Shown piece by piece: positions 3,532-59,050 of a stretch of DNA of 64,000 bases (positions are counted from its first letter, which is position 1; every line of letters starts with the position of its first letter). The DNA lies in the NCBI GenBank assembly GCA_017654855.1, contig CM030334.1:744001-808000 (forward strand), given 5' to 3'. Under the pieces are notes generated by a model, which searched no databases, had not been told where the DNA came from, and was given only the letters and a program-made list of their open reading frames with translations. The position numbers and the translations under genes were made by a program. This DNA is from Podospora anserina. Its lineage: Eukaryota.

Positions 3532-6500
3532 TCATGCCCTCTTCCTCTGTGCCCCTGCCCCCCTGGGCACTCGAAACATCCAATAAAAGCCCAATGCCGC
3601 CACAATATTGACCACAATGTACACCCACACAATGCCGAAATCCCTCCACCTGGTATCATAACTCAGTTCAAACCTAGCCAAAAAATCATCCGTTGAACCC
3701 AACGGACAATAGCCACACAGATCCAACGCATCCCCGTTCAACACCCTTCCCCCAGCAGCCTGGGCAAACGGCCCCAGAAACTCACCACACGTCATGTTTT
3801 GCGGTGGCACCACATGCAACACTTCATAGTCCGCACAGACAACATCTGCCCCCGCGACAGCAGTCGACATATGCCCCCGGCCAGATACGTCGCCGGCGAG
3901 ACCCGGTACATAAACTTCCAAAATGCGGGCAAATCCCCTGGCAGCACGCCAATACCACAAAACAAGATGCAAAGCACCCACAACAGCGTCGTCAGCACTC
4001 CCGCTTCTTCAGGGAGATCAATCCACACAATCGCAAAGTGGGCGACGGTGCTCGTGAACAAGAGATACTCCCACAGGAACAAAAACACCAAGAACCCCCT
4101 GATGGTCTGGTCATCGGGCGTGGAGTTGCGGACAAATCCAACGGGGTAGTACCAACAAAAGAATATGATGACCTCCATAAGTGTGCTCCAGCCCAGTTCG
4201 ATCAGGACATTGGCCGTCACAAAGGTTGTCCAGTGGTAGACTTTGGAGAGTCGTTCGCGGGCTTCGTAGAGGTTGCGCTGGGGTATGAACATGGGCATAA
4301 TCTGCTCATTGTAGTGCATGAAGAGCACGAAGAAAATAAAGATGGCCCAGAGTTGGTTCTGCAGGCCCTGGATTGAGTTGTTGGAGGGATAGCTGAAGCC
4401 AAGGTACAGGGACTGTTAGGTGATTGTCAGGGTTAATCCTCACAAACACGGTCAAGGAGTCTCACCGAAAGCGTGAACAAGGCAACTTTGGACCAAATGT
4501 ATGCTGGAGATCGCCAGAAATACTTGATGATGCGGAGAGCGACCTCCCAGAATTAGGTTGAAAAGGAAGAGACAGATTCCTGATGCCGGCTTCCACGATC
4601 GTTGGTCTTGACCGCGCCAGCTTGGTCCGAGGCGAGAGATCGGAGTCGTGCAAGTTCCTGCTTGACACTTTGATACCCCGGAGAGGAGCACCAGACATGA
4701 TGCCAGTCGATGGTAGAAGCATCCTCGTCAGGTGGCTCGATGACCTGTAGCATCCACTCTGCGGAGTTCTCACCTTCTGCAATGGGTGGTGCCCCATTTT
4801 GTTCGAAGTATTCAATGAGAGTCGACGCGTTTGGACCCAAGTCTGTGTTTCATCTAGGGGTGAGCCTTTATCAAAGGGAAGGGCAGTGTAACCTACCGCC
4901 GAAGTACACCGTTCTCCCACCAGGGGCAAACAACAGGAGACGGTCAAACTGGTTGAACAAGATAGCAGAAGGTTGGTGGATGGTGCAGAGCACAGCTTGC
5001 CCGTTGTTGGCGAGCTTTTTGATTAGCGTGGAGATCACCCAAGAGCTTTGTGAATCAAGCCCCGATGTGGGCTCGTCGAAGAATATCAGCAGCTGCGGCC
5101 GGGCTGCCAGTTCCACCCCGATTGTAAGAAGTTTTCTTTGCTCGATGTTGAGACCTTCGCCAGGCACACCGATGATGGCATCCGCGAAGTCTTGCATCTC
5201 TAGCATATCTATTACATGATCAACGTAGAGCAGCTTTTCCTTTCGCGATGTCTCAGCCGGTTGTCGAAGAATAGCGCTGAATTCTAGCGCCTCTCGTATT
5301 GTCATCGTACTCAGGTGTAAGTCCTGCTGTTGTGCGTAGCCAACCTGATGTTGAAATGTGGCATCGGTCGGGACCCCATCGATAAGTGTGTCGCCTGTCA
5401 CGACACCAACTGAAACACGGACGGCGAGTGTATCAGTAATGTGGTCTTTCCAGCCCCTGAAAACCCCTACAGTGGACCTCTTGTTAGTACATCTACCTCT
5501 TTCCGTGGATGGAGGAGGCCTCGTGAGGTCCACGGAAGAGGAAGTGGTACGTACCATGAGAATTGTAGACACTCCGGGCTTGACCCAACATCAACGTGGT
5601 CAAGCAGCCGGTGCTCCTCGCCCTTGATTTTGATGTCGTAACAAAGATCTTCCCAATGGAAGATTGACCTCCCTCTTGTGAGGCCAGTAGAGCCAGGTGC
5701 CAAGGTTCCCTTTTCTACCGTTACCACATGTTGTTCCTGGGCCAAAGCCTCGGTATCCGAGTCGACTGAATGCCGTGGGCGAGAAACAGCTCCAGCCCTC
5801 CCGAAAACAAGTACCTTCCCTCTGGTTTTCGGCGGTCGTGCAAACTCGGCGGTGGCGAGATAGACGGCAAAGAAAAGGATCATGAACCCCACGATAATCG
5901 CCACGTTTCTCCATTTGTGCTCATTCCAGTAATTAAACGACAGGTTAATGTACTTAGTCACCGCGGACATGAGAAGACCCCGGCTCCGCACCAACAACAG
6001 AGCAAAACTGCGAGTGAGGCGGCAGACCTTCGTAGCCTGGGCCTTGCGGTATCATACTAGCACACGGAAATTCCCTCTCATGAGATTCGTTTGCCATCAA
6101 GGACTCAAAGGCATAGCTAAGAGGTTGATAGAGACCATCCATCGTGACCAGTTTGGCATGTATGCAGTGGGCAAGGTAAAGCCCGTGTAAATAATCAATC
6201 CAATACCGAGAAGGGCGCTCGGTATCATGGCCTCCTCAAGGGAGCGGGTTATGCTGGCCAAAGTGCGAAACATGGCCGACAGAGTAAGCGTCGATAGGAG
6301 GGTAATGAGACAAAAGAGGAAGAAGGCGCTGACCTCCCGTCTAAGATGAGCCGTAAAGTAAACCATTATGTTGAACACGAACATGTTGATAATCTTGTAA
6401 GGGAGACCGCAAAGATAGCTGGCAAAAGCTTGTGCCGATTGATGGTAAAACGCGTAGCGATTATGCTTCTCGACAACGGGGCGTTCGGCGTAGATGGTGA

Positions 6501-8119
6501 TGACCTCAAGCTGGCTAGCGAAGGCGTTGAACATCAATGAAAAGAAGATGATACCGCCCCGGTAATAGAAGCTAGAGGAGTCTTCTTTGAGGTTGTAAAA
6601 CATGGTTCCCAGGACTATGGCTATGATCAAGAAGAAGACCAGCGACGTAATCGTGAAGGCAGGGTCGGCCAACAGTCTTCTCCAGGCACGCCAATACGCC
6701 AAAGCAACCTGTTGCGAGTATGAAATGATATACGGTGAGTTCGTGCGCTGTCCTTTGGCCTGCTCCTGTCGTCTGGATCCGCGATAGTCGGTGAGCCGTA
6801 TTTGCTGTGGGTGCTTCTCTTCGTACACCATTAACTCCTGCAATAGCTTCTGCCTTTGCGGGGATTGAATCCATCTTTGCTAAATTCATCTGGCGTTCGT
6901 GGCACCAAGTTCTCGTAGCCTGGTTTGGGGCGTCGTTCGTGAGGGCTTGTCATTGATGTCAAAAAGTCAGGGACTGTTTGTCTGTCGGGGCACTGAAAGC
7001 CCAAGTCCTCAAAATATCTCTTTGCGTCCTGAGCCGGGCTGAAAAAGATCTGTCTTCCCTCGTATATAACCGTGACACGATCAAACAAATCGTATGCGGA
7101 CTGGGGAGCTTGGTACAGCGACACCACAGATGCAACATCGCAAAGGTCAGCTTGGAGGCGCAAATTCCGACAGAAGTTGATGGCATTGGCACTGTCAAGC
7201 CCGCGGGTTGAGTTGTCCCAGCACTGAAGCTTGGCTCATGTCAGTGCTGCCTCTGCGATGCTGACCCGTTTTCGTTTACCCCCACTGACCCCTTTAACAT
7301 CCTCGTCGCCGACTCGTGTGTTTACGGTATGTGTCAGCCCAAAGATGGCCATCATGACATCGCGCCTGATTAGAGCGAGCTCCTGACGTGTGAAACCCCC
7401 AGGTACGTGACGAACACTGCGGGCCAAGCTGGCGAAGGACAGCGTTTCGCCGACGGTAAGATGAGCTAGGTGGACGTCAAGCTCAGCATTGTAAAGAACA
7501 TCACCCCGAAGGGAGCCGCGAATGTGTTTCGGGTGAATCCCTATCGAGGAGCACATGTGTTAAAAGCCGAACCAGAAGGTGGGGACGAGGATGGTTGGCA
7601 AATACCTCTATAATTCAGGTAAGACTCTGGATCGATCTCCAAGTCTGCGGTTTGAGATGCGAGCGTCTTGAGCAAAGTCGAACAGCCAGCTCCCGGTGGT
7701 CCCAACACAAGAAGCATCTCTCCCCCTTCCACCACCCCTTCAAAGCCCTCAGAATTCGTTTCGGGGTGTTGCTTCGGCGGTTGTAACGAACCGCACAGGT
7801 TCTTGACTACCTCCACCACAACACTTGAGACTGACTGCTGGACCTGAGTCCCTGTATTCCAGCCATGGACGTTTGGATTTTGAAAAGCCACACCAAGGGC
7901 TCGGTTGGGCGCGCATTTAGGGTCCCCCTCGGAGAAGTTGATGAATTCTCTGGTCCAGGCACGGGCGTCAAATATCGCTGCTTTGGGGTCGAGCATGCTC
8001 CCGGGTATGGGGTCGATGGGGCCATTGCGAGTATTCAAAGTTCCGCTGATTCGTTGCGCGAGTTGCTTCAGTTCTTTTGTGGCATCCTCAGGTTGGGGCT
8101 GACTGGGTAGTTCGGCCAT
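3532..8119 (-). pseudogene. PDR-type (ABCG) multidrug ABC transporter, multiply disrupted
   Basis: PDR motifs are spread over many frames: [76 protein letters not shown]. There is an in-frame TGA at 7236-7238 and frameshifts including inside the NBD2 Walker A (~5430-5465). Confidence 0.9.
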
Positions 8120-8652
8120 CGTCGTAGGCGTTCAACGCGGAAAGGCTGAAGGGTGTTGAAGCTCGGGTAGCGGGTGCCATGGTAACGGGAGCCATGGTAA
8201 CGGGAAAGGGCAGCGGTGAGGCTTTTGAGCACCCCGGACCAGCAACGCGATAGGCAGATGACAGAGCAGTTGGTCGTCAAGCTTGCTCTTGCTGTGAGAA
8301 CGAAAGAGAAACAACCAACAAACTCCTTGGCACCCCTGTCTGCTCTCAGATTAGACGCGCAACGTTGATGTCTCCGTAGAGAGGCAATGGAGATACAACC
8401 GTGTTCAAGTTGCATTCGCTTCAGGAATCTCTTCCATGTTCTGCTCGGGGCGAATCCCTCCGCATCCTGAAATCGTCAGTATAATGTCCGAGACGGAGCA
8501 AACGAGCAACCGCCCCGAAGAATATGTCCACTTACGGCACTCGGCTCAGGTCTTGGCTCCGGCGTTGGCTGTCTTGGCTCGGCGAGAGCGGGACCCCAGC
8601 GCGGCCATGCCCAACGACAACGGAGGTTCTGGCGATTCTCAGATGGGCAGAT

Positions 8653-8988
8653 TGTGACGAACCCCTATCCAGAACCTCTGAAAAGGATGCTGGTTGAAGG
8701 TACTTCTGAATAATCCTAGTTCGGTACAGTTAAACAGTGTACAATAAATGGCTTATCTCAATCACAATAACTAAAATACTAACGATCATAATTTATATTA
8801 CATACTACGGAACTATTTATCTATACTAGCCAGTTCCTTCGTATATATAGACCTTAGGACCGTGGACCGTTGACTTACAGACAGTCCTCGGTCCACTCCT
8901 GATTGGCCGATGCTAGACCGTGGACCGTGAGCCCCGCCGCGGTCCCCGGTCCCCATCTTATTAGTCCGTTCTGTCCACCTGGACCGTA
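8653..8988 (-). mobile_element. Truncated Ty3/gypsy LTR (U3 type 1)
   Basis: Starts TGTGACGAACCCCT like the other family LTRs. It matches 49903-50301 but stops at ...GGACCGTA and joins internal sequence directly. Confidence 0.85.
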
Positions 8989-9070
8989 CTTAAGATATAT
9001 AATATTATTTATACTTAGGTCCCTTTATACTTTTTAACCTCGTAGTATAGTATATAGTACGTCGGCTATT

Positions 9071-9486
9071 TGTGACGAACCCCTATCCAGAACCTCTGAA
9101 AGGGATACTGGTTGAAGGTAACTTCTGAATAATCCTGGTTCGGTGCAGCTAAATAGTGCACAACAAATGGCTTGTCTCGATCACAATAGCTAAAATACCA
9201 CGATTGTGACTTGTCATTGCATACTGCGGAACTGTCTATCTACACCAGCCAGTTCCTCCGCGTATATAGACCTCGTGCCAAGCCATGATCAGTCTCCCAA
9301 GACCACTGATCACCTCTGCTCAGTCTGCTCAGTGCCCTGAGCATACTGATCATCTCTGCTCAGTCTGCTCAGTGCCCTGAGCACACTAATTACTCGTCCT
9401 CCACTGTAATTAGCTTTCTTATACATTCTCCCGATTGGCTCCTACTCCCGTGGCCCCACAACCCGTCCTGCACCAGGGTTGTAACA
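9071..9486 (-). mobile_element. Solo LTR, Ty3 family (U3 type 2), 416 bp
   Basis: TG...CA ends with CTATT TSD at 9066-9070 and 9487-9491. Same length and type as 51542-51957. Confidence 0.95.
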
Positions 9487-10777
9487 CTATTATATTAAAG
9501 GTATAAGTTCGATTCCCGTCGAAGTTTTATATCTAAATTTATAAATATAGTTCGTAAATTTAAATACTAGCTTCTTAGTTACCCCGCCGGTAATATATTT
9601 TTAACTTTTTTTTATTACGGTAAAAGCATATAATATTAGTTAGGCTTAAATTCCTTTATACTTATTAATTTCGTAGTATAGTAGGTAGTATATTGATTAT
9701 TATATCGAAAGTATAGATTCGATTCCTATTAAGGTTTTTCCGTATTTAGATTTATAGATATATTTCCGTGAACCTAAGTACGGTTTTTTATTTTTTTAGG
9801 TTTTAATCGGTTTAAATATTACCGGTAAAATACTTTTTATTTATCCGGGTAATTAAGGTTTATTTTTAATTTTTATAAATTATTTATAGGCGGGTATCTT
9901 AATTAATTAACTAAATACTTTAATTAACTTTTATTAAATTATAAATTTAATATTTTTTTTATATTATAATTTTTTATCCTCCGTTACTACCTATATATTA
10001 ACCTTATTTACCGGTAGTACGGGTTTTAAAAATAAAATATAAAAAGTATATATTTATAAACGTATTATATTAAATAACTTTAATTCGAATACCGTTTTAA
10101 AATTTTCCTTTTAACCTTAAACGGGCCTACTCTCCTATAGTCTAGCTTCTTGCTAGGTCTTTTAATATATAAATTATATATAAAAAAGAATATTATATTT
10201 CTCTCTTTAAAGTAAGGTTCTGTGACGAACCCCTGTACAGAACCTCTGAAAGGGATACTAGTTAAAGGTAACTTCTGACAATTAGTTCGGTGCAGCTAAA
10301 TAGTGCACAACAAGATATCTCAATGTAAACACTAGCTACCGTAAATACAAGCTTAAATTACATACTGCGGAACTATCTATCTACACTAGCCAGTTCCTCC
10401 GTATATATAGACCTTAGGGCCGTAAGGTGCTCGCCCTGCTATAGGCCCGATTACTCCTAGCATATTACATCTGCATTGTACTCGTCGTGCTATACCTCTA
10501 ATTATCCCTAGTATCTTGCATCCTGCAGACTACTCGTAAGCCTTAGCGCTATAGCACTTTTGCCTAGCCCTAATCGGCTTATTCCCTGATTTCTTAAATA
10601 ATTAATTAGGGGCGACTTGCGCCCTATATATAGCGCGACCTGCCGTTAGGTTAATTATAATATAATGCTCCTTTTCCTAGGTTAACGCCCCGGCGACCGT
10701 ATTTCTAAAATAATTACCGATCTCCCTTTTTTCCGTATCTTTACTATAAATTCCTCTCCTCTCTTATCCTAACCGTT

Positions 10778-11393
10778 ATATTTAATCGTATAAGGAAATC
10801 GACTCGTACGAGTACCGACCGTCGTTATAATTAAATATATTTTTTTAAAAAGTTTAATTTTATTATACTTAAATATACTTATTATAAAGAGAATAATCTT
10901 TAATATATAGCTTCCCCTCGATACGACCGGTACCTTCCGTATATTAATTCGAGTCGTTCCTATTATAATATTTATAGCGTAAATCGTAAATTTCTTTTTT
11001 AACTTTCCCTTCCCCTTTCTAACTATTCCTATAGTCCGTCTTTTAATTAAAAAGAAAAAACGTTTAAATACCAAAAAGTAAATTACTTTAAATAAACTTT
11101 TTTATTTTAAAATATAATTATATACCTTTAAAGCTCGAGCCTTTATTACTTTTCGTTACAAATCTCGGCTCTTTAAGGAGGAAAAGAGAGAGTTTTTCGC
11201 GCGGCCTACTACCCTATATAGCCCGCCGGTAGCGGACGCTTCCGCTATTCCTTCCGATCTTTCCTTCCTAGATCCTTCCTTAGGCTTCGACTAGCCGCTT
11301 AACCTTTCCCTAAACCCGGATATAGCCGGTCCTTCCTTTTTAACCTCCTAAAATATTACCGCTAATATACTTTTTATTTCCTAAAGTAATTAA
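10778..11393 (+). pseudogene. RIP-destroyed antisense gene in Ty3 element: Zn(II)2Cys6 cluster + coiled coil
   Basis: TAY codons at 10874, 10883, 10904, 10931, 10940 and 10961/10964 give C-x2-C-x6-C-x8-C-x2-C-x6/7-C if TGY->TAY is reversed. A 49-nt intron lies at 10986-11034 (GTAAAT...CTAAC...TAG). Confidence 0.7.
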
Positions 11394-14300
11394 AGCGTAT
11401 AATACTATTTATATTTAATCCTCTTTATACTTTTTAACCTTATAATATAGTATATAGTACGTCGATTATTATATCAAAAGTATAAATTCGATTTTTATTA
11501 AAGTTCTTTAATCTTTATATTATTATTATTTAACGGTAATTTAGAAATTCGTTTTTTTTATTTAAGTTTTAGTCGGTCTAAATATCGTTAATAAAATTTT
11601 TTTTATTTATTTAAATAATTAAAGTATATCTATAATTCTTACGAATTATTTATAGCCGGATATTTTAATTAATTAATTAAATATTTTAATTAACTTTTAT
11701 TAAATTATAAATTTAATATTTTTTTTATATTATATTTTTTTTTTATCCTTCGTTACTACCTATATATTAACCTTATTTACCGGTAGTATAGGTTTTAAAA
11801 GTAAAATATAAAAAGTATATAATTATAAATATATTATATTAAATAACTTTAATTCGAATACCGTTTTTAAGATTTTCCTTTTAACTTTAAATAAGTTTAC
11901 TTTCCTATAATCTAGTTTCTTACTAAATTTTTTAATACGTAAATTACATATAAAAAGGAATATTATATTTCCCCCTTTAAAGTAAAGTCCCTCGAGCCTT
12001 TTAATATTATAGTATTTCCGTATCCTTTCCCTTATAAACTCTAGTTTTTATTTAAACTTATTATAAAATATATATAACTTATTTATTTTAACCTTAACCC
12101 TAAATACTTTAACGTTAAATCCTTACCGTAAATTTACTTTATATTTAAAGTTTACGAAGAACGGTATAACTTTAATTATTTTAATTAATAATATATTATA
12201 TACTAATTATATTATAAATAATAATTTAATTTAATTATTTTATTCGAAATTAATATAATTCCGTAAATATTATTTTATAATTTAATTAAACCGTTTCGTT
12301 TAACCGTCCGTTTAAAGGTAATAAACTAAAAATATTTTACTTACTACCCTTAATTTCGTTATTAACACTTTTTAAAACTTTAATATAAATTTAATATCGC
12401 GGTCTATAATAAACTTTTTTAATTTTATATATATTAATATAATATACCGTAATACTATATTTATTAATTACTTTACCGACTAAATCTCTTTATAAAGTAA
12501 AAAATATATTTATTTAATAAACTTATCGACTACCGTTAATATATTATTATACTTAACGCCGGTTATTATATTTTTAAACTTTAATAATTTAATAATAAAG
12601 TTTATTATAACTAAACTTTATAATCGTTTTACTATTAATAATAACTTTAGAAATCTATAAAGCTTATACCTTATAACCCTCGTTTTTTTATATATATAAT
12701 ATAATTAAATAATTTCTTTAATATTATTTTTAATCCTTAACTAATTAAAATACTATTTAATTTTTTTTATAATCTTTATAATACTTATATATTTTCCGAA
12801 CTTTAATTTATAAATCTCTATTACTAATATTATTCTATTACTTAATATTACGTATACTCGATTCTTATACTATAGTTTTCCTTAACTATCCTTTTAAATA
12901 TTTTATAGCTCTAACTTTTTTTATTAATATTATTTTATAATATCGTTACCTAACTTCCTTTAATATTTATTAAAAATAATTTTTTTATAATATATTACGT
13001 AATATTTTATTTATAACTATAATAAATACTTAAAAGTACCGTTTAACGCTTCCTTAAATAATAATAATAATTCTTTAAGTATATCCTTATAGTAATCGGC
13101 TCGCCGGTTAAATATATTTACCTTAACGTTCTCCGAACCCTTTTTATAATTAATTTAAAAATTAAATTCCGAAAAAAACTTAAACTATCGTATTTACTAT
13201 ACGTTAAGGACCTTCGTAATAGTAAAGTACTATAAATTTTTATAATCTATATAAACCTATATTTCGTATTTAATATTATTAAAATATAACTTTTATTCCT
13301 TAAATATTTTAATAATAGTAAGTAACTCCTTATTATAAATTAAGTAATTTTAACGTACCTCTTCGAACTTTTTTAAAAAAAAAGTTACCGGGTATAGCTT
13401 ACTATTATCGTTTCGCTACTTTAATTATCTACCGATCGTATAGTTTAATATATCCGCCTCGACTTTAAATAATCGATTAGGGTTTAGTAATTTAAATACC
13501 GGATCTTTTAAAATAGTTTCTTTTAGTTTCTAAAAGGCTTACTCCTTTTCCTACCCCTACCGGAACTCTATATCCTTTTTAATTAAGTAATTAAATAGCC
13601 GCGTAATACTTACGTACCTATAAATAAATATTTAATAAAAATTCGTAAACCCTAAAAATTCTTTAACGTATATTTATAATTACGGTATAAACTAATTTTT
13701 AATTACTATAATTTTCCTAAATTTTATACGAATTTTATTTAACGATATTAAATATTTTAAATATACTATTTTTTATATATAAAACTCGCTTTTTTTTTAT
13801 TAATTAAAAGTCTAGTTCCGTATAGCGCGTCGAATATCTTTTATATATATCGTTTATATTCCTTTAAAATACGTAAGTAAATAAAAACGTCGTTAAAATA
13901 ATATATTATTATTTTATCGAAGTACTTTCGGATTGTATAATTAACGAAAAATTAAAACGTTATAGGCGTATTAGTTAATTTAAATAATATTACGAAATAT
14001 TCGAAATAACTATAGGGTATATAAAATACTATTTTCTATTTATTTCCTTTTTTAATCCGTATATAAGCGTACCTGATAAATATATTTAAATATATAAAGT
14101 ATCGTACCCCTACTAATTAATTTTATAACCTAAATATTAATAGTAACGGGTAACTATTTTTTACCGTTTCGTTATTTAATTAACGGTAGTTTATATATAA
14201 TTATAAACCGCTATCCTTTTTCGGTACGAAGAATATAGGGTATTCTATTAGCGATATAGATTTCCTAATATATCCTTTCTTTAAATTCTCGTTTAAATAC

Positions 14301-16068
14301 TTCCGTAATTCTTTACTTTACTTATCGTTAATATAATAGACTTTAAATAGCCGTAACTTAGCTCTTTCTTTTAACTTAATCTCGTAGTCCTACGGTCCTC
14401 GCTCTAAAAGTCCCTCTAAATATTTAGCCGTAAAGGCTAAATATTTTTAATATTCCACCGGTACCGCCTTTTTCTTATTTTTTTCTATATAATTATAATA
14501 AATATACTTATTAATCTCCGATATCTTTATTAACGTCGTTAACCTTACTTCTTTAATTTTACTACCTATATCGATAGAGTATATTATTATTTTTTAGGTT
14601 CCTTACGGTAGTATTATAGAGGGTATTTATCCTATACTTTATTCTATATATATATTTAATTTCCTATCGTTAATTAGATATTTTTAAGGTTTTTTTAGTC
14701 GTAAGTAGCTACTATCCCTCTAATCGATATCTAAATTATAATTTTTATATTATAATTATTTTAGGATTATATTTTTCGAGGGTCCTATATTTATAATATT
14801 AAATATAATTAAAATTATTTTTTTTTCGATTATAATATCTAAAAATAATATTTCTCTATAAACTTTTTACATCGGAAATAATCCTTATATAACGATTTAT
14901 TTTTTTTTTCTTTTATAGTATTTTAATTTAATATATAAACTATAACGAAATTAGGTTCGTTTCTATACTTCCGTTTATTAATATTATTATTTAAATATTT
15001 TTTTAATATATTATAATTTAAAGGTATTTATTTTTTTTATTTTTTTTTATATAGTAACGACTTTATTAATGAGTACCGGGTCGTTATTTTATACCTTTAC
15101 TTTACGCTAATACTTCCGAAAATATTATTCGTAATCCGTTAAAAGTTACCGGCCCCCGCGAAAGGCCGCGAATCGTTTCCTAAATAATTATATTGTTTAA
15201 AAACATCCTTTTACTCCGGGTTATTTAATAATATAAAGTCTTTTAACTATACCCGCCTAGCTTCCTCCTATCTTCCGTCTTTTACGTATTTAATATTTTC
15301 CTATATATATATTCGATAATAGTTTTTTTACTTAATCGTTTACCTAAATATTTTTATTTAATAATATTATTTATCTTTTTTTTATAAATATAATACGTAA
15401 TTTAGGTTTAGGTACTAACCTAATATTACTTTTTCTTAAAAACGTATATTATCGTTTATATTTTAACTATTTATATATTTAATATAGTATTTTATATACT
15501 TTAATATAAATAATTAATAATCGTATAGCGACTTACTTTAATAATATTTTATATATCTATATATAATATATTAAAATTAAAGTATTTTCCGATACTCTGG
15601 ATACCTAAAATAAAGTTATACTATATTTCCTTTATAAAGTATATACTATATAAATATAAATATATTTTTTAGTAACTTCGCGATTCCGATATTAATAATT
15701 TTTTTACCCTTTTAATATTTTTTTCGGCTTTTATATATAAGTTTTATAAATAATAATATTTCTTACGAAATAATAATCTTATATTTACCGTATTACTTTT
15801 TTAATATTATTTATTTAGTAAGTCCTTCTTACTATATAGCGTTATTATCTTTAGCGACTTCCGTAACGATTTTTATAGTAATTTATATTAGTCGATCCTA
15901 AAATACTAATATTTAAAGGTCTCCTTCTTTATATTCCGCCTTTAACTTTTTTATTATTTACCGTAGCCCCTAAAACTTTACTTCCTTTTATTCAGCGTAT
16001 TAATTAAAGTTTTTTTCGAAATTTATTATTTTATTTTATTAATACTTAATAATTATAACCTTTATAAC

Positions 16069-19000
16069 TGTTAAAATACAGCACTTATTTGTGGATTTTA
16101 CAATATGTTCTTTCTCGTGGCTTACAGCACTTAAAGGCTTCAAGCCACAGCGCCCATAACGCCCACAGCGGTCACAAGGAACTACAAAGTTTTTATACAA
16201 GCCACTATAGCTAACTAAACCGATAGAAGTTGTGGGGATTGATAAGGAGGAAAAAGAGGTTTTGGATGCCTATAAAAGGCTCCCCTCTTAGTATATTTAG
16301 AATAATCTTTTTCTTTCTTAAGTTTAAGTTAAACAGTCAAAATCAATATACTAATTTACTACACTTTTGTAGGGCATAGTTCCCTATACTTGCTTTCCTT
16401 CGGTGCTACCTTACACCGTCGTACCTCGCAGTCTAAGAACCCTAGAGTCTTTAGGTAATTACTTCCGACCTACCTAGAAGGTATATAACTAGCCTGCCGA
16501 CGATATATTTTAATAGGTTATAAGCCCGGACTTATATTTAAGCTTTAGCGAGTTCCTTTATTTTACGTTTCTATAGTAGTTTTTTACCGTAAACCCTATT
16601 CTTATAGGCTACTAAGCCCTAGAATTGGAATACTTAGCTTTATATTTATTAACCAACGCCCTACTTTCTAGGCTTTCGTCTTCTATAATAAATAAAGAAA
16701 TAGGGAACGTCCCCCCCCTTCTTAACTTACCTTTAAGTATCGACCCGACCGTTTTAAGTTAGTAAATCGTTACCTAACTAAAAGCCCACTTTAAAATTTA
16801 GTTTAATAAATTTATAAAGAAGCTAAAAGATATAGTTATTCGTTAAAATAAAAAAATTATTACGTTATAGGTTTCTATTAGAAACTCGGTACCTCGTTTA
16901 AAGGACTCCCTCACACTAATACCTTCGGCTGTACTTACTTCCGCTTCCTTATTATCGATACTTTTTACTCCGCTTACGGCTACTATTTTTTTAATAAAGG
17001 ACCTTAATAAACAAACCCTTTAATTAATTAAAAAAAATAAGCTTTTAGGGCTTAATAACTATCGATAATAAATTTAAGCTTTTATTATTTAACTAAAGGT
17101 TATAGAAATCTTAAACTTTATTAATAAGCCTACCGAAGTTATTAATACCTTAACGGATATATTTAAAGCTTATTTAGTCCTTACTATCCGGAATACTTTT
17201 TAGTAAGGTCCCTTTTAAACTATTAAAGTAAAGGATTTTCCGGCTACTATTTTCCTACGCCTATAAATATAATATACCCTAGCTTAATTAATTATTCGGG
17301 ATAAGTTTTATAAATCTTATTACTTACTAAAATTTAATAGCTCCTTTATAGTAATGGAATTTAACGTTAAATTTAATACTTTTATTTCTCGGCTTAAGGG
17401 CTTAAATATAATTATTTAGGAAATTAATTAAATTAATTATTATTTAAATACTTTAAAATATAGTTTTTTATAATAGTATAAGCGCTATAAAGCCTTAATT
17501 TATTATTAAATATATTTAAGCCCGGCTAAACTATTTAATTTTTTTTTCTTTTAAAATAACTTTTTTATAAAAACCCGGAACTTAATTACTTCGGTTATTT
17601 AAGCTCTTATAGCCCTATAGTCTTAGTATTTTAAAGCTTAAAAGAATAATAAATCTCTTAAAGATAAGTTTAAGAATTCTGGATTTTTAAGGGGTTTAGG
17701 GGGTTTAGGGGGTTTAGAGAACTTTAAAGGCTTTATAGATTTAAAAAGCTCGGGAAGTTCGAAAAAAAAAAAGAAAAAAGATAAGTCTAAAAAATATTCC
17801 TTATAGGACTTCTTACCTTTAATAAATATTATAGAGGTCTCTTTCCTAATAGGTTTTAATCTTAGTACAGGATTCTATAATATCCTAAAAAATCCCTCCT
17901 TTAGTAAAGGAAACCCTGTAACTTACGTTTATAAGGGCCTTCGAAGCGTATAGTTTTTTAATACCGGCTTTACCGTTTATATATATAATAAAAGAAATTT
18001 TTTTACGGATTTTTTAATATTCGAAAACTTAAGTTCGGTTTAAATAAGGGGCGGCCCTATAAGCTTAGTAAACTAAAGTATTATAAAGGTTTATTTTTAT
18101 ACCGGAATTAAGAACGGAAGGGCCTATTATTTTATAGTTTTACTTTCTAAAACCCTTTATATTCCGAATTTCCTACTAAATATTATAAGTAAAAAATACT
18201 TTTACTATTTTAAAAAAACTTTATTTTATTAAAAAATCTTTAATACTAATAAAAGGTTTATTATTTTATTCGATTTCGATAAATCTAGGTTTTTTCTAGG
18301 AATTAAAGGAAAGAGCCGCCCCGGAAAGTATAGTTATTAATATAACTATAGCGCTTACATTAAAAATTTTAGTAATTTAAAGGACTTTAAAATTCTTACG
18401 ATCTTTAAAGAATTTAAAGCCCCCGAAATTCTAAAGGGGGTTAAAGATTAAACGCTAGTTATTCTACCGGCAAGGCCTTCTAAAGAGTTTTTTAAAGAAC
18501 CCTTAATAATATTTATCGAGGCTATTATCCTCTAATATATACGGTTAAGCTATATAGGCCTTACCCTTCTAAAAAAAACCTTTTTAATTACCGAAGGAAT
18601 ACCTAACCTATAAAAGATCCGGCCTAAAGATCTTATTTATAAGAGCTGTAATACCGTAAAAATCCTTTACAGGCCCTTTAAGTAGGCCGTTAATAACCTT
18701 TTATTTACTTTAAGCCGGATTAAGGGAAATATTATTTCGATTAAACCTCTTTTATTTACGAAAAAGGTTTACGCCCTTATTTTAGTAGATCGGAAAACCC
18801 GTTACCGTTTCGTTCGGCCCTTAAGGTTAAAAGAAAATACTATTTAAAAGACTTACTTAATAATCGAAAGCTTAAAGAACTTTTTTTATAAGTACTTAGG
18901 GTACTTCTATTACGACGGGGGAAAAGAAATCTTACCTTTAAAGGCCTATTTCGTAGAGAAAGGTATTAACTTTAATACTTTAAGTCCTAGAACCCTTAAC

Positions 19001-21780
19001 TAAAACGGTTTAGTAAAGCGTTTTATTTATATTATTCTTAACCGATTAAGGGCTATAGTATTTACTTTAGGCTTCCCGCCTACTCTCTAGAGTTATATTA
19101 TTTAGCCTATAATTAAAATTATTAATAAAACGGTATAATTTTTTAAAGAACTTACGCTTTATTAACTTTTCTATAATAAATTATTTTCTAACTAACCGGC
19201 CTATAGGCCTAGCCTTTTAAATTATAAGGCTATTAGTACCGAGGTTACGGTATATATCTCTACTAAGAGCCGGGTTTTAAGAGAGAAGTTTACGCTTAGA
19301 GGAATTAAAGGCTAGCTCTTTATAGTCCTCGGCCACTAAACTTATTTAATTTACTTAAACCTAAATAAAATTATTTAAACTAGCTTTATAAAGTTTTACG
19401 AAAACCTTAAAACTTAATTTATAGGGCTACCGAACTTTATTAGTTTACTAAAAGTAGTAAACCGGTTTAACGATTTAGAGAATAAACTAGATATTTAGAC
19501 CCCTGTAGAGGACCCTATTTAAATACCGGATCCTGGAATTCCAGTACCCTCTACTACTATTAAAATCCTATTACTTTAAGCGATTCGGGAATAACGTAAA
19601 GAGTTTAAGCCTATCGACGAAATAAATTATATTAAACTTATTAATTATTTAATCTTTAAATCCCTAAAAACCTTAATAGTTTAATCTACGGCTACGTTTT
19701 TAAAGCTTAATATCTTTAAATAAATCTTAAAGTACCTTAATAAAAATTAATAATTATAAATAATATTTATAAAAATATAATAGTTTTTTATAACGAAAAC
19801 CTTTTATTTTATTAACCGCTTAAAAACTAAAAAGCGGTTAATTACTAATCGTTAAATCTTTAAAAAAAAGAAAAACCCGTAGGGTATTATAGTAAAGTAT
19901 AAAGTACGGTTAATTACCCGGGGATTTTAATAAGCTTTGGGAATTAATTTTTTATAGACTTACGCTTTTACTATAGGCCTTCTAACCTAAAGGATTATAC
20001 TAATTATTACTATAGTATTCGATTAGGATATTAAATAAATAAATTTCGTGGAAGCCTTTTTAAATTCGGAGATCGATTTCGATATATATATCGAGCTTCC
20101 GTAGGGCCTAACCGAGTTTTCTTATAGTAATTTAGCCGCTATAACCCTATTTAAGAGAGCTAGCTAGGACCCTATAGAAAACTAAATTATATTTCTAAAA
20201 AAGTCTTTCTATAGCCTTAAGTAAGCGTCCTACTTATAATAATAAAAGGTTTTTATAATAGCCCGGGTATTAAGTTTTAGACTATTAATTTTAAATATAA
20301 TTATTTACTTTTACTTAAATTATATAATTTTTTTTATTAATTACGTTAATAATTATTTATTTATAGGCCTATAGTACTTATAACTCTAGGCTTTAAAGAA
20401 AGTAATGGGTAACTACTATAATATCGAAAATCTCGGCCCGGCTCGCTATTTTTTAGGTATTTAAATCGAACGTAATAAGTTAAATCGTTACTTTTAGCTT
20501 TATTAGAAAGTTTATATTAGCGAAGCCGTTAAATACTTTAATATTAGTACTAAACCTATACTTCTTTCCTTAAGCCTAAGGTTTATAGGATATAATAATA
20601 AGTTTAAAAGCCCTATAATACCTATAGAGTAATACTTTTATTAATAACTAATCGGTATTACTATATATACTATAGTCTAAACGAAGTTTAATATAGCCTT
20701 TAGTATTTAATAGTTATTACAGTACCTAAAAATACCTACTTTAATATACTTTAAGGTTATTAAATCCTTTCTTTTTTATTTATATACTACTATAGATTTA
20801 GCTATTAGTTACGGCTCGAATAAGGATTTAATACCTATTAGGTTTATAGATAGTAATTAGGTTAAGTATAAAACTAGTGTTAAATTAATATATAATTAAT
20901 TATTTATATTTACTAAAGGACCTATTAGTTAAAAGTCTAAAAAAGCCTTTACGGTTTCTTTTAGTACCTTAAAAGCCGAGTTTATAGGGCTTGTAGAAGG
21001 CTTTAAGGAAGCTATATGGCTTAGGGGATTATTCTAGGAGATCGGTAGGCCTATTTACTAGCCTACCCCCTTATTATGTAATAACGAAAGCTCTATTGCC
21101 ACTACCTATAGTAATAAGTATAACCGCCGAATAAAATATATATTTATTAAATTCTAAGGGGTTAAGGAAATTATAATTACTAAAGTAATTACTATTACTT
21201 ACTTACCTATTAAGAAAATACTAGCTAATAGGCTTATTAAAGCTCTTCCGGTAACTTTATTTAATAAATTTACAGAGCTCTTGAATCTCACTAGACCGTT
21301 CTAGCTACCCACGCATTACGGCTGTAGAGGGGGTATTAAAATATAGTATTTATTTGTGGATTTTATAGTATATTCTTTTTCGTAGCTTATAGTACTTAAA
21401 GGCTTTAAGCCATAGCGCCTATAATACCCACAGCGGTTATAAGGAACTATAAAGTTTTTATATAAGCTACTGTGGCTAACTAAACCGGTAGAAGTTGTGG
21501 GGATTGATAAGGAGGAAAAAGAGGTTTTGGATGCCTATAAAAGGCTCCCCTCTTAGTATATTTAGAATAATCTTTTTCTTTCTTAAGTTTAAGTTAAACA
21601 GTCAAAATCAATATACTGGTTTACTACACTTTTGCAGGGCATAGTTCCCTATACTTGCCTTCCTTCGGTGCCACCTCACACCGTTGTACCTCGCAGTCCA
21701 AGAACCCCAGAGTCTTCAGGTAATTGCTTCCGACCTACCTGGAAGGCATACAACTAGCCTGCCGACGACATATCTCAACA
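16069..21780 (+). mobile_element. Full-length RIP-degraded Ty1/copia retrotransposon, 447-bp LTRs
   Basis: LTRs at 16069-16515 and 21334-21780 with ATAAC TSD. PBS GGTTATAAGCCC at 16516 and PPT AGAGGGGG. Copia domain order: WH.RLGH/integrase (~18530) before RT K.K.RL..RGF.Q (~19895) and RNase H AD.LTK (~21225). Confidence 0.93.
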
Positions 21781-23743
21781 ATAACCTTCGGTCCCCTTAA
21801 TATAATAGTTATTATAACGATTTTTTTTTTATTTAAATTATTTAAATACCTAATAATCTTTTTTAAAATATTTTATTTTACTATAATTAAAATATTTACA
21901 GTTATTTCTACTTTAGTCCTAGCTTTACGGCCTTTATTATTATATAATATTAATATTTATAAGTCCCGAATATATAATACCGGAGTAATTAATAATTAAG
22001 TATTACTATTTACGTTTATTATTAGAGCGGTAATTTCCGTAATAACCCCGATTATTATAATTTTTTTTTTATACGACGCTAGAATTATTTATCGTCGATC
22101 CGTATAGCTATAGCGATATACTTATCGATAGTATTAAGCCTTTCCTCCTTATATAACTTATCCTTTACTTTTTTTTTAAAGCTATTATAAAAAATTTATA
22201 TTAACCCCTTATCGTTAATCTCGCTATATAAACTATCGATTTTAAATTAAGTAGTATATTCCGTTACTGAACGTATTTACCGTAAATTTATAAACCTCTC
22301 TTATACGCGCCTACCCTTATTGTATTTCCTAAATATTTTTTTAAACTTTACTTTAAAAACTCGGTAATTTCGAAAATACTAAATAGTAATTTCCTTCTAA
22401 TCCTCTACCACTACCTTATAATAATTATTAAAAATAAATTCGAATTAAATAAAAGCTTTATCCTTAAGCCGGGTAGCTACGTATATTACTTTCGACTCTT
22501 CTATATCGAACTATTCCGGGTAATAACGAAAGTAAATTTTAAATTAAATTAAAAAACTTTTAAGCTTTACCTTTCCGCCTCTATAACGCTCTAATACCAG
22601 AAATTTAATTACGTACGTAGGCTTAACCGCCGAAAAAGTAAGAACCTACTCCCTAGTTTACTGGGCTTCGGCCTTAAACTTTTTAACGCGATCGATAAAC
22701 TATTAAGCTATAGTAACCTTAGACCTAGCGTTTACCGTGGAAGGTCCCTCGATAGTTAAGTTAAGCGGGACGCCTTTTATTTAAACGTTTTCGGGTTAGG
22801 CTATAGTAGTAAAAAAATGCTTTTAATTTATCCGTAATAGAGTTAAAGTAAGTATATAACGTGTAATAAACCCCTATACAGAACCTTTAAAAGGGATATT
22901 AGTTAAAAGTAACTTCTAATAATTAATTCGGTATAGTTAAATAATATATAATAAAATATTTTAATATAAATACTAATTACCGTAAATATAAATTTAAATT
23001 ATATACTACGGAACTATCTATTTACACTAGCTAGTTCCTCCGTATATATAGACTTTAGGGCCGTGAGGTGCTCGCCCTACTATAGGCCCGATTACTCCTA
23101 GCACATTACATCTATATTATACTCGTCGTACTATACCTCTAATTATCCCTAGCATCTTGCATCCTGCAGACTGCTCGTGAGCCTTAGCGCTATAGCACTT
23201 TTGCTTAGCCCTGATCGGCTTATTCCCTGACTTCCTAAATGATTAGCTAGGGGCGACCTGCGCCCCACATGTGGCGCGACCTGCCGTTAGGTTAACTGTG
23301 ACAGGTTCCTCGAGCTTTTTAATATTATAGTATTTCCGTATTTTTTCCTTTATAAACTCTAATTTTTATTTAAATTTACTATAAAATATATATAATTTAT
23401 TTACTCTAACTTTAGCCCTAAATACCTTAACGCTTAATCTTTACCGTAGGTTTACTTTATATTTAAAGTTTATAAAGAATAATATAGTTTTTATTATTTT
23501 TATTAGTAACGTATTATATATTAATTATATTATAAGTAATAGTTTAATCTAATTATTTTACTCGAAATTAATATAATTCTGGAGGTACTATTTTACGATT
23601 TAGTTAAACCATTCCATTTAACCGTTTATGTAAGGGTAGTAGGCCGAAGACGCTTTACTTACTATCCCGAGCCTCATTATTAACGCTCTTTAAAACTTCG
23701 ATACGAATTTAATATCGTGGTCCGTAATAAATTCCTTTAATTA

Positions 23744-24375
23744 TATTAATATGTAGGTACTACTAAATGCCCTACTTACTGCCCTACAGATTAATATTAT
23801 AGTGGGCAATACTGCTATAAGCAGTAATGGAACTTCCCGGCTTGGATCCCTTTAGAATATTCTTTATAAGGGACCCTTGAAGGCTTATAGGGCTACTGTG
23901 GCCTAAAGCTTAGTCAATGGATACTAGAACCTTCCAAAGTGGCTACAGGCTTACGTAGTAAGTTGCTACAATAGTGTGATTTATAGGGCACTTCTGTTAC
24001 CGAAGGTTCTATAGATTTCCGTAAGTTTACACTAGACCCACCTAAGCCCACCAAATACCCTAAAGTAGTATAGGGGCTTCTAGGGCCTACAGGCCCTACA
24101 GTAGGCCTACGAAGGCCTATATATAGACCTCTCCTCTCTCCTGTAGAATAGTTCTCTTTCTTTCTTTAAGGGCAAAAGCTTAAGGCTAAGGCCAAAAGCC
24201 AAGGCCAAGGGTAATAAAGGCAATTCTTATTCTTTATACCTTACTGTATTACAGTGCTTTACCTTCCTTCGGCACTGCCGTCGTATCCTCCCGCTTCCGC
24301 TTGCGCACTGCTGTATTTTACAGCAACCCTATATAGGTTCTATATTATAGGCCTATCAGGGCTCACCAGCTAACA
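23744..24375. mobile_element. Solo LTR of ~630-bp family, no matching TSD
   Basis: Aligns end to end with 59051-59672 and 59769-60400 (TGTTAATGTGTGGGTAC...CCAGCTAACA). Flanks AATTA and AAATT differ. Confidence 0.9.
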
Positions 24376-24397
24376 AAATTAAAGTAAGTATATAACG

Positions 24398-48633: not shown

Positions 48634-50399
48634 ACTTCCCACCACACCGTAACAAACTATCCTCAATTATACCGCAACAACACTAGGAAGCAACTACAAC
48701 TATATTAAAAGCAGCTGAATCAGACTCTTTTGTAACCTCCTGGCACGTACGGATATTATGGCCAGGCTTGCCGCACACACCACAGCACCGAACCTTCGTA
48801 CGAGGCCCCCCTGCTCTACTGCTATCCGGCTATATTTCTTCCACTGCCTCCCCACTTACGGCCTTCTGATCCAGTAGATCCTGTGCCTCTTGTATAGTAA
48901 GTGACCCTCCAAGCCTCACACGTGTTTTTTTGGCTCTCCGGCGTTTACTTAGTACTTTATTAGCCTTACGGAGCGAAGAGACCTTTACACGAAGGAGAGC
49001 CACCTAATATATTATAGTCGTTATACCCTTAGTAAGCTGGTTTACCGTAATTAATATTAAAGTTAGGGAACTATTTTAATAATTAATAGTATAAGTCTTA
49101 ATAAATATTAATTATAAATTAACTTCTCGAGGGTTATATAGTATCTAGAAGACCTAAGGTTATATAGTGCCGGGCCGTAAATTTAGAGGTATTAGCGTAC
49201 GAAGCTTTATATTTAACTTAAAAAATACCTTTTCTAAAACGTATAGTATAAAGTTAATACCTATAAAACTACCTTATATATTCTTTTTTATTATAAAAGC
49301 GAAAAAGGCTTTACGGAAGGTATAGAGGAACTTAAGGTTACTTATATAATTAATATATATACGTATTAAGTCCTCGATCTAACGACTATACGTTTATTTT
49401 AGTAGCCTAAAGTAATTAATATCGAGTAATTAGAGAAGGTAGGAGGAGTATAAAAGTATATAGAGCGTAATAATATTATTTTATTAACAGTAACATTTAA
49501 ATTTAATCGAATAATAATTTTTATAACCGTCGAGAATTAATACTTATTATTTACTTTTTTATACGAAATACTATATAATAATCGAAATACTTAATTTAAT
49601 TTAAGCCTATTATATTAATAATTTAACTATTATCGGTAATTATAATACGCTAGGTAAACGGTAGGTTATACTTAGTATATTAGTTAGTAAAGTAGTATTA
49701 CGCGGCTAAAATAATAAACGCAGGGATAACTTAATTAAAAGTATTAGCTTTTTAAATTACCGTTACCTATTTACAGTTATTAAGCTAGGCTAATTTTGCT
49801 TTACTAAAGCCGTTCGAGATAGTAATTACTATACCCGCGAAAATAATACTTATTATAAACCTAGTCTCGTCGTAGTTATAAATATCATTATTTATAATAC
49901 CGTATAACGAACTTCTATACAAAACCTTTAAAAGGGATATTAGTTAAAAGTAACTTCTAATAATTAATTTAGTATAGCTAAATAGTGTATAATAAAATAT
50001 TTTAATTATAATAATTAAAATACCACGATTATAATTTATATTATATATTATAGAACTATTTATCTATATTAGCCAGTTCCTCCATATATATAGATTAGTA
50101 GACCGTGGACCGTTAACTTATAAACGGTCCTCGGTCTACTCTTAATTGGCCGATATTAGACCGTGGATCGTAAGCCCCGCCGCGGTCCCCGGTCCTTATT
50201 TTATTAGTCCGTTTCGTCCGCTTAGACCGTAAGCCCCGCTCGATCGCTCGGTCTAGCCCTAATTGATCGTTATAGCCCTACTGTTTTCTAGAACCGTAAA
50301 ATAATACTCCCTCTCTAAGCCGAAGCCCTTACGGCCTAGTCTTTTTTTACTATTAATAATATCGTAAGTCTTCCCTCTTTACTTGTCTTTACCTTTATT

Positions 50400-51051
50400 A
50401 TATTTAACCGTATATAGAAACGTTATTATAAAACTAAAGAATTTTCTGCCCTTACTTTACGAATCTTTTACTATAGTTCTACCATAATACCGTACTTTAC
50501 TTATTTTACCTCTAGAATCTCCTATATTAAAGTCTCCGGATTTTCGCGATACGCTAAGTATATACACCGTAAAATTCCATATAACGGTTCTAACGTTAGC
50601 TCCGCCCGTAAGTATATTTTTCTTTTCTTTTTATTCCGTAATTAACCGCTCAATAGTAACCCGAACGATAGAAGAGTAGGATAGGCTCGAGCGTAAGGAA
50701 TAAAAGTTTAAAAATTAATTCTCGTAACTAATTATTAAATTTATTTAAGTAAAATAAATATATTACTTTCTTTATATACGTAAAGAGCGTTTTTTTACGC
50801 GGGGTATTTAGGAGGAGGATACCCGGGTAATATAGTCCGTAATTGCGGCTCCGCCTGGTTTTTTACTAGGTGCTCCTACACGGCCGGACGCTGCTTAGGG
50901 CACCGTTCCGTAGTTTCTTTACGTTCTGGACCCTTCTTTAAGCCTTAATTAGCTTTCCGACCTTTTTTTCGATTCTAGTATAGCCGGTCCTTCCTTTTTA
51001 ACTCCGTAGGGTATTACTAATAGCGCGCCTTCTACTTCCTAAAGTAATTAA
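50400..51051 (+). pseudogene. RIP-destroyed antisense gene in Ty3 element: Zn(II)2Cys6 cluster + coiled coil (second, diverged copy)
   Basis: TAY codons at 50493, 50502, 50523, 50550, 50559 and 50580 give C-x2-C-x6-C-x8-C-x2-C-x6-C. A 49-nt intron lies at 50608-50656 (GTAAGT...TTAAC...TAG). Confidence 0.72.
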
Positions 51052-51259
51052 AACGTATAGTATTATTTATACCTAAGTCTTTTTATACTTTTTAACTTCG
51101 TAGTATAGTATATAGTACGCCGGCTACTATAATAAAAATATAGGTTCGATTTCTATCGAAGTTTTTATAAATTTAATAAAATTTAATAGGTTTTTCTAAG
51201 TTTAAATATTATTTTGCTCGTTAATAATACCCTTTTAACTTTTTTTTACGATAGTAAAG

Positions 51260-58900: not shown

Positions 58901-59034
58901 GTTGAGAGCTTAAGGGCGAGCTGCTGTGGGCGAGCCGTTGGGAACGCGAGTGGGGGAGCTGTTGGGAGTAATGTGGGCGTAGAATTCTATAAATAAGTGC
59001 TATAAAATCCATGAATAAATGCTGTATTTTAATA
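52909..59034 (-). mobile_element. Full-length RIP-degraded Ty1/copia retrotransposon, 704-bp LTRs
   Basis: LTRs at 52909-53612 and 58331-59034 with GATAC TSD. PPT at 53613-53620 and PBS relic at ~58318-58330. The internal region is homologous (inverted) to 16516-21333. Confidence 0.9.
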
Positions 59035-59050
59035 GATACTAATTAAAAAT

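Follow-up and report, generated by a model that had tools for sequence, protein, structure and literature searches.

Can a gene that a retrotransposon carries on the strand opposite to pol still be read after repeat-induced point mutation (RIP) has destroyed it? The question is raised by a 64-kb stretch of Podospora anserina DNA (contig CM030334.1, positions 744,001 to 808,000), the whole of which is here called the window and in which positions are counted from the first letter. Two copies of a Ty3-type long terminal repeat (LTR) retrotransposon in the window, copy 1 and copy 2, hold an antisense open reading frame (ORF) with six regularly spaced Tyr codons between the end of pol and the 3' LTR. 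An initial annotation had proposed that this frame encodes a spliced DNA-binding regulator of the Gal4 type, or Zn(II)2Cys6 (Zn2Cys6) family, that belongs to the element. One part of this proposal stood, as an antisense accessory ORF was found in 15 copies, while the other part, membership of the zinc-cluster family, did not gain a match to the family profile PF00172. In our preferred reading, one clade of fungal Ty3/chromovirus elements had a conserved accessory gene, whose product would have acted through a zinc cluster, and the region is what RIP has left of this gene. We assign this reading, with its proposed mechanism, a probability of about 0.55. That a real ancestral antisense gene existed at this site is far safer, and we regard it as very likely.

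In copy 1 the plus-strand frame starts at 10778 with ATA TTT AAT CGT ATA AGG AAA, as had been claimed, and a TATAAA sequence at 10745-10750 was found 28 nt upstream of the frame start (about 30 nt in the initial annotation). Exon 1 (10778-10985, plus strand) is RIP-degraded and comprises the start block ATA TTT AAT CGT ATA, the N-terminal part and a putative Cys-cluster remnant (10874-10963, plus strand). Tyr codons 33, 36, 43, 52, 55 and 62/63 have the claimed spacing x2-x6-x8-x2-x6/7, and the remnant is delimited by six TAY codons (Y is a pyrimidine) spaced x2-x6-x8-x2-x6, in columns that are TGY in less mutated relatives. In-frame stops are located at codons 19 and 42 of exon 1, neither of them common to copy 2. 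An intron-like stretch of 49 nt (10986-11034, plus strand) begins after the first base of codon 70, in phase 1, and has the GTAAAT donor, CTAAC branch site and TAG acceptor described initially; on the sense strand of the element it is a polypurine run. Exon 2 (11035-11081, plus strand) is a short charged segment that ends at the TAA at 11079-11081. Copy 2 is less RIPed. Its exon 1 (50400-50607, plus strand) begins with ATA TTT AAC CGT ATA and has one stop, at codon 6, and its cluster remnant (50493-50582, plus strand) has the same spacing as that of copy 1 and no internal stop. The intron-like stretch of copy 2 (50608-50656, plus strand) is also 49 nt long, with a GTAAGT donor, TTAAC and a TAG acceptor, and is followed by an exon 2 (50657-50703, plus strand) that ends at the TAA at 50701-50703.

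The lengths of exon 1 (208 nt) and of the intron-like stretch (49 nt) and the distance to the stop were equal in both copies, and no indel breaks the frame of the ORF, although its flanks differed between the copies by indels of 4, 26 and 6 nt. A paralogous contig of three DNA runs was 84-86% identical to the copy 2 region; its sole indel within 50349-50772 (8 or 9 nt) was located inside the intron-like stretch of copy 2, as seen in the best 40 of 277 rows. The TAA at codon 85 is common to both copies, and many stops follow it in copy 2. Between this TAA and the end of pol, copy 1 has a convergent spacer (11082-11564), of which 11237-11564 is well conserved between the copies; 11082-11236 is not, and carries indels that are not multiples of three. 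These features indicate that the antisense ORF most likely ends at the shared TAA, after 84 codons, and not at 11393, and they speak against the low-complexity tail that had been taken as coding up to that position. Both window copies are dead, and therefore they have no practical consequence for the host genome.

The window itself gives some signs of coding. Between copies 1 and 2 the loop DNA that separates the Tyr codons is identical at 23 of 72 bases, with 34 transversions and a local-alignment z of 0.4, whereas the six Tyr codons are identical at 17 of 18 bases. When the codon composition was kept, the probability that this spacing would recur at the equivalent site of copy 2 was 5e-6 to 3e-5. 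Each copy has 2 stops in 84 codons compared to approximately 7 expected (P 0.011 and 0.027), none of which is shared. A 3-periodicity of the TA dinucleotide was the same in both copies (P 0.037 and 0.044) and was seen in none of the control regions, and in each of the two exons the antisense reading frame had a better BLOSUM sum than any of the other five frames. Altogether these coding signs are modest but mutually consistent, and the two window copies are independent evidence only in part. The initial annotation would have counted stops that are not attributable to C to T or G to A changes against a gene. Such a rule cannot discriminate, because these changes produce TAA from CAA, TAG from CAG or TGG, and TGA from CGA or TGG.

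Relatives of the element carry the main weight of the argument. When metagenome contigs were scanned with an RNase H-integrase alignment (A2), related elements were obtained at 80 loci. A regular expression found the antisense pattern 1.1-1.4 kb downstream of the integrase DDE-E motif in loci L002, L007, L013, L016, L025, L045, L056, L057, L059 and L077, with a second copy of the pattern in L007, and a profile made from the copies found added L075, with the ORF at a like distance from DDE-E, and a fragment in L047, both of which were read by hand. Outside the window there are 13 full copies and the L047 fragment, on contigs with six accession prefixes. All 15 copies (2 in the window, 13 from metagenomes) are located on the strand opposite to the adjoining pol and converge with it. 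The Pfam domain Chromo lies just upstream of the ORF in L025, L002 and L006: in L025 it occupies 1728-1878 and the first Cys codon of the ORF is at 2337, and in the minus-strand element of L006 Chromo is at 8552-8408 and the ORF at 7985-8131. The window ORF has the place given initially, in a minus-strand LTR element whose chromodomain-like pol end (11565) is on one side of it and whose polypurine tract and 3' LTR boundary (10663-10678 and 10662) are on the other. Of the 32 pol copies that are followed by 1500 nt or more, 8 were found to have the ORF and the other 24 were not; the closest pol relative, L001, has no such ORF within 3.4 kb downstream.

The groups of copies are linked at the protein level. 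With tblastn, L007 was connected both to window copy 2 (E 2e-7) and to the L013 group (E 2e-4 to 7e-3), and L056 to window copy 1 (E 2e-3); hhalign aligned the RIPed group with the less mutated group in the same register (P 2.7e-4). L075 was placed by register, position and the shared motifs MP[ST], CDV and LN. Taken together, the sequence comparisons point to an antisense accessory ORF that is conserved among copies and related families. The region 5000-11000 of the L006 contig holds two decayed copies of one Ty3 family arranged tail to tail, and the ORF belongs to the minus-strand copy. This contig has 29% G+C and no RIP signature (index 1.77), yet many stops in pol. MAFFT misaligned L006 in the small alignment sets A4 and A6, and both were left out.

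In the window, AT-rich DNA forms two blocks, one at 9-25 kb and the other at 48-60.5 kb, among G+C-rich stretches (52-55% G+C). The RIP index (CA+TG)/(AC+GT) was found to be 0.00-0.16 in the element compared to 1.29 in the G+C-rich DNA of the window, and the TA/AT ratio 1.22-1.83 compared to 0.55; this signature of RIP marks both AT-rich blocks. Of the 54 positions in the nine RIP-saturated copies (local index 0.00-0.14), all are TAY and none is Cys. The copy in L006, which is not RIPed (local index 2.36), reads TGT TGC TGT TGC TAT TGC at the six positions and encodes five Cys, while L075 reads TAT TAC TGT TGT TGC TGT and encodes four; L025 has four Cys codons, L002 three, and L045 and L016 one each. 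Among these six less mutated relatives Cys occurs in columns 1 to 6 in 4, 1, 4, 3, 1 and 5 copies, each column being TGY in at least one copy, and the number of Cys declines with rising mutation load. L075 shares long loops and the LN motif with the fully RIPed L013 group, and a change from TGY to TAY is therefore seen within one sub-clade. Set against these relatives, the initial proposal that the window Tyr codons are RIP-converted Cys codons (TGY to TAY) holds, and the six positions were probably all Cys ancestrally. At 8264-8262 of L013, eleven codons before the first cluster position and outside the six-position pattern, TGT stands where L077 and L056 have TAT.

An ATG is located three codons before the first Cys in L025, L002, L016 and L075. 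The window copies and those of L007 have a conserved N-terminal part of approximately 30 codons that begins near an ATA common to all four copies. This shared start fits, without proving, an ATG altered by RIP, and is probably one. Every lineage has a charged helix after the cluster, and in the window and the L013 group it lies in the +1 frame relative to the cluster, so that an intron-like stretch with a length of 1 mod 3 is needed to join the two. The GT..AG stretch between cluster and helix is 49 nt in the window and 58 nt in the L013 group, both 1 mod 3 and in phase 1. L075 has a homologous but shorter stretch, and in L007a a 36-nt GTAAGT..TAG stretch holds the only stop of that copy. From these sequences the intron is likely, not certain, to be real in this sub-clade, and overall we put its reality at slightly better than even. 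Across the copies the ORF has approximately 80-105 codons with a start and a stop of its own.

The signature of the Zn(II)2Cys6 family is C-x2-C-x6-C-x5-12-C-x2-C-x6-8-C, and a PROSITE-type rule places R, K, H or Q, which contacts DNA, at the fourth residue of the loop between the second and third Cys (C2-C3). The spacing in the window fits the signature exactly, with TAY at all six positions in both copies. In tests that were run on natural translations only, the fourth residue of the C2-C3 loop was R, K or Q in 11 of the 15 copies, a stop in two and unfit in window copy 1 and L016; since the copies are related, 11 of 15 is a poor count of lineages. The residue before the first Cys was small or Pro in most copies. 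The family fold consists of two short helices around two zinc ions, each helix beginning at a C-x2-C pair. The AlphaFold2 (AF2) model of L006, made from alignment A3, has low confidence in the cluster, where it places helices at 11-16 (C1-C2) and 28-36 (C4-C5), and is confident for a C-terminal helix at 51-69. The ORF is like the Gal4-type domain in its Cys spacing (C-x2-C-x6-C-x8..13-C-x2-C-x6..8-C), in the helix after a short linker and in its fungal host. Unlike Gal4-type proteins it is only approximately 80-105 residues long, is encoded by a retrotransposon and is without the middle homology and activation regions. The cluster resembles the Gal4 type, and it is from this resemblance that we infer family and function; whether it was a Gal4-type zinc cluster that bound DNA is close to an even question, with the balance if anything slightly on the negative side.

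Searches with the window peptide gave little else. Pfam, applied to all frames of both window spacers, returned nothing beyond Kazal_C6 (E 0.079), which was considered a chance match. No candidate was obtained for the peptide 50418-50606 in a word-based protein search, and HMMER over 1.84 billion representatives returned no relative, its only hit being P0001. This protein of 285 aa is internally repetitive, was matched in 4 short stretches and was taken as spurious; it has four repeats, is probably a translated repeat, and has a run of 10/11 residues in common with the copy 2 peptide. In the ESM Atlas the window and L006 peptides were nearest to the same clusters of hypothetical Ascomycota proteins of 103-105 aa (scores 0.82-0.85, a lead only). 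These clusters are without a common Pfam family and may represent the intact family.

According to the preferred reading, the gene occupied the spacer that leads from the end of pol to the 3' LTR, in antisense orientation and convergent with pol. Its approximately 84 codons would have encoded an N-terminal part of approximately 30 residues, a six-Cys cluster of 30 residues with the ancestral spacing C-x2-C-x6-C-x8-C-x2-C-x6-C, a linker interrupted by the 49-nt phase-1 intron, and a charged helix up to the TAA at 11079-11081. Such an intron could have persisted through retrotransposition because the genomic RNA is the opposite strand. The cluster may have bound zinc as a Gal4-type binuclear cluster and the helix may have dimerised, and the product would have been a minimal DNA-binding protein without an effector domain that acted on promoters of the element itself or of the host. 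RIP would then have changed every TGY to TAY and probably ATG to ATA, and added stops.

A number of observations weigh against this reading. With respect to the gene model, the TATAAA of copy 1 has no counterpart in copy 2 when the copies are aligned and is not a conserved signal. The intron-like stretch is absent from the copies on contigs with the accession prefix WNGJ and from L006, and it is degenerate in L007. There is no third-position excess among the differences between copies 1 and 2, the loops being saturated, and when the window copies are compared by MAFFT or by blocks, their first three Tyr are shifted by one codon against each other. A minus-strand mirror frame (10769-11074, 101 codons) has 0 stops in copy 1, so that openness of the ORF cannot by itself choose the strand. 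With respect to the sample, the metagenome scan used RIP-shaped peptide words and therefore leans to RIPed and AT-rich relatives, with intact ones under-sampled, and the profile score of L075 was only 7.5 bits (E 1.3). With respect to the cluster, none of the natural copies combines Cys at all six positions, L006 coming closest with five, and Cys was found at the second position only in L006 and at the fifth only in L075. The C2-C3 loops of both window copies are poor in basic residues, and the C3-C4 loop of L075, with 13 residues, is outside the usual 5-12. PF00172, which the initial annotation had named as a check, gave no match at E up to 10 for the window copies, L006, L025, L002, L013, L077 or L075. 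Neither did phmmer and hmmsearch against the PDB find a zinc-cluster protein for the window peptide or its relatives, nor did Foldseek of the AF2 model against the PDB find anything at E <= 0.001; the predicted local distance difference test (pLDDT) of that model was 55-62 in the cluster. The failed profile searches are weak evidence, because all inputs are damaged and have at least one Cys position replaced.

The explanation that competes best accepts a real antisense ORF and holds that it encoded some other small Cys-rich or zinc-binding protein, possibly of the brtn family known from the retrotransposon Boty, with a part in RNA or capsid handling or in control of silencing via the antisense transcript. 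It draws on the absence of any profile, sequence or fold search that ties a natural copy to Zn2Cys6, and on the second and fifth positions, which are Tyr in all four WNGJ-prefix copies, the fifth being Tyr also in the un-RIPed L006. The loops are extremely variable between lineages, the Ascomycota clusters nearest to the peptides have no Pfam family, and antisense ORFs at this location are described in the literature as being without a known function (PMC7264820). Damage to all tested copies would alone explain the failed profile searches, however, and the exact Zn2Cys6 spacing, the basic residue at the fourth loop position in most copies, the helix placed after the cluster as in Gal4-type domains and the finding that every position is Cys somewhere all argue against it. 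We consider this explanation unlikely, if well within the range that has to be reckoned with.

Much less probable is an origin by capture, in which the 5' part of a host zinc-cluster gene (exon 1, intron and start of exon 2) would be carried antisense as a passenger without function for the element. In host genes of the Zn2Cys6 family the cluster is typically N-terminal, which would suit such a capture. An older element in the window, copy 0, is without the region, its spacer between pol and LTR being approximately 310 nt compared to 902 nt in copy 1 and free of such an ORF when the window was scanned for the spacing; the absence of the ORF from three quarters of the pol copies with enough flank (24/32) points the same way. 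A passenger would hardly have held its position and orientation across lineages in which neither the loops nor the LTRs can be aligned any longer, nor would it be expected to have its own start and stop within only approximately 80-105 codons, or to keep six codons while the adjoining sequence was randomised. We therefore regard capture without function as very improbable.

A chance origin of the pattern, from RIPed and TA-rich DNA without coding function in the 3' untranslated region of the element, is close to refuted. TAY codons are common after RIP (12 and 10 Tyr in 69 codons), the first three Tyr are out of register by one codon in MAFFT, and on the pessimistic assumption that the last three Tyr are shared by descent we estimate the coincidence at about 0.5%. 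A regular expression Y-x2-Y-x6-Y-x5-12-Y-x2-Y-x6-8-Y had two matches in six frames of the 28.5 kb of AT-rich DNA, and when C or Y was allowed there were still only two in the whole 64-kb window, both at the equivalent site of the two copies. The expectation was 0.18+0.07 matches from shuffles and 0.38+0.15 from block shuffles, overall 0.25-0.5 in all AT-rich DNA. The pattern is also found in the 13 further copies, whose contigs have five accession prefixes and the less mutated of which have Cys codons in its columns, and the groups are connected by the tblastn links.

A sense-strand feature, either a third sense ORF in the mirror frame or a cis-acting RNA or DNA signal such as an internal polypurine tract, can draw on the open mirror frame of copy 1, the polypurine run opposite the proposed intron and the blindness of 3-periodicity to strand, but it is scarcely credible, as BLOSUM sums are lowest for the mirror frame (5 and -2), which has 0-1 synonymous differences and would keep six Ile/Val and nothing else, and as the frame change between cluster and helix makes sense only on the antisense strand, where the relatives have their ATG and Cys codons. 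The 101-codon minus-strand ORF was accordingly rejected as a gene, being a codon-for-codon mirror without protein-level conservation; it illustrates how a mirror frame stays open.

An antisense gene in this position has a precedent, which lessens the novelty that the initial annotation had implied. In Botrytis and Sclerotinia, the element Boty has an antisense gene, brtn, in the interval from pol to the 3' LTR (PMC7264820; PMC8365987; PMC4227169; PMC5987419), and the name "brtn-106" (PMC4227169) is read here as approximately 106 residues. As far as these passages describe it, Boty is like the window element in being a fungal chromodomain Ty3/gypsy element with an extra antisense gene between pol and the 3' LTR and a small product. 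Unlike the description given here of the window ORF, the Boty passages speak neither of an intron nor of a Cys or zinc cluster, the comparison being one of descriptions only. The G+C-rich DNA of the window (52-55% G+C) is unlike the genomes of Botrytis and Sclerotinia, which have approximately 42% G+C. In plants, the LTR retrotransposons Grande1, RIRE2, Retand and PvRetro13 have antisense ORFs between pol and the 3' LTR (PMC7264820; PMC11963269). From what is described of them, these are like the window ORF in place and orientation and in being conserved within families, and for them, too, no function is established, although a regulatory one has been suggested; they differ in that some of the elements are non-chromoviral, their pol-to-LTR regions are much longer and no zinc cluster is reported. 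Among the matches listed in our literature search, no paper links Zn2Cys6 or a zinc cluster with antisense ORFs of LTR retrotransposons.

A further comparison, drawn loosely in the initial annotation, is HBZ of human T-cell leukaemia virus type 1 (HTLV-1), an antisense spliced bZIP gene of a retrovirus, with proven transcripts and function. HBZ is like the proposed gene in being antisense at the 3' end of a retroelement, in having an intron and in combining a DNA-binding type of domain with a dimerising helix. It is unlike it in that the domain is unrelated and the host virus is an animal retrovirus, whereas the ORF described here is known from sequence alone. As a wider and more tentative proposal, an entire clade among the fungal chromoviruses may have its own spliced antisense Gal4-type gene for a minimal DNA-binding dimer that lacks an effector domain and would control the LTR promoter or occupy host zinc-cluster sites. 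brtn would be a member of the same family with its zinc cluster unrecognised, and RIP would hide the gene from ORF and domain finders in most genomes. We regard this joint proposal as possible, with the odds somewhat against it.

Copy 1 is a complete minus-strand LTR element as delimited by self-comparison of the window and reading of the junctions. Its 3' LTR of 442 nt (10221-10662, minus strand) is followed directly on the inside by the polypurine tract (10663-10678, minus strand), and the 5' LTR, TGTCACAG...TTACA, is located at 22862-23303 (minus strand). The LTRs have TG..CA ends and are flanked by a 5-bp target-site duplication, GAACC, at 23304-23308 and 10216-10220, as in a Ty3/gypsy chromovirus. 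The pol remnant (11565-16000, minus strand) has approximately 20% G+C and is saturated with stops; it contains the reverse transcriptase-RNase H region at 13163-13547 (minus strand; Pfam RT_RNaseH_2, E 2.4e-16). The frame after this region aligns to the integrase of P0002, a partly RIPed relative, and SH3-like and chromodomain-like segments, recognised by eye only, end at 11565. By these domains copy 1 belongs to the Ty3-type elements. Copy 2 is truncated; its LTR is found at 49907-50303 (minus strand) by self-comparison and a fragment of its pol tail at 51050-51175 (minus strand). One run presumed to be RNA gave no coverage of 50250-51180, an outcome that carries no information on expression. 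In the source organism, at least half of the sampled words of 10600-11600 were contained in 20 of 24 listed public runs (8 studies), and the RIPed copy 1 region is therefore common to many isolates.

The older copy 0 (9071-10218, minus strand) holds the insertion of copy 1. Its pieces in the window are 23305-23752, the pol tail at 9623-10218 and the 3' LTR at 9071-9488, copy 1 having inserted in its integrase; the copy 0 pol tail had no match in the protein collection or the viral contigs. The region 10216-23308 represents three nested transposon layers, with copy 1 in the integrase of copy 0 and an LTR element of another family inside copy 1. The innermost element (16071-21773) has LTRs at 16071-16508 and 21336-21773 that are 91% identical. 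An inverted relative of it is located at 52909-59034, with LTRs of 704 nt (52909-53612 and 58331-59034; 82% identical) and an interior 69% identical to 18148-21371. Two tandem units of approximately 630 nt, 88% identical to each other, were found at 59050-60400 and 23744-24381, and are 88-94% identical to a stretch upstream of the copy 0 integrase piece. A motif of approximately 30 nt (GGAATCGAA..ATATAATA) occurs twice on the minus strand of copy 0, at 9703-9738 in the pol tail and at 9493-9525 directly before the LTR, and the inner occurrence is retained in copies 1 and 2 (11472-11507 and 51110-51151). A module of approximately 200 nt, the 3' end of the LTR, has 8 occurrences in one orientation (at 8652, 9070, 10221, 22869, 24402, 49907, 51260 and 51542) with 72-85% identity, and the upstream halves of the LTRs differ. 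Its recurrence suggests recombinant LTR subfamilies and several solo LTRs.

Extra genes of LTR retrotransposons are rare and mostly of unknown function. brtn of Boty is the only fungal antisense example named in the literature among the matches listed, and a gene of this kind now appears in another set of elements, whose contigs come from several sources. The Cys pattern gives this gene a function that can be tested, namely binding of zinc and DNA. As a method, the TGY-to-TAY reading of RIPed DNA, combined with partly mutated relatives, can recover genes that are missing from ORF tracks. If the preferred reading is true, a transposon would carry a transcription-factor-like protein of the largest fungal regulator family, which would bear on how such elements control their own expression and on host regulators that arise from, or are copied by, transposons.

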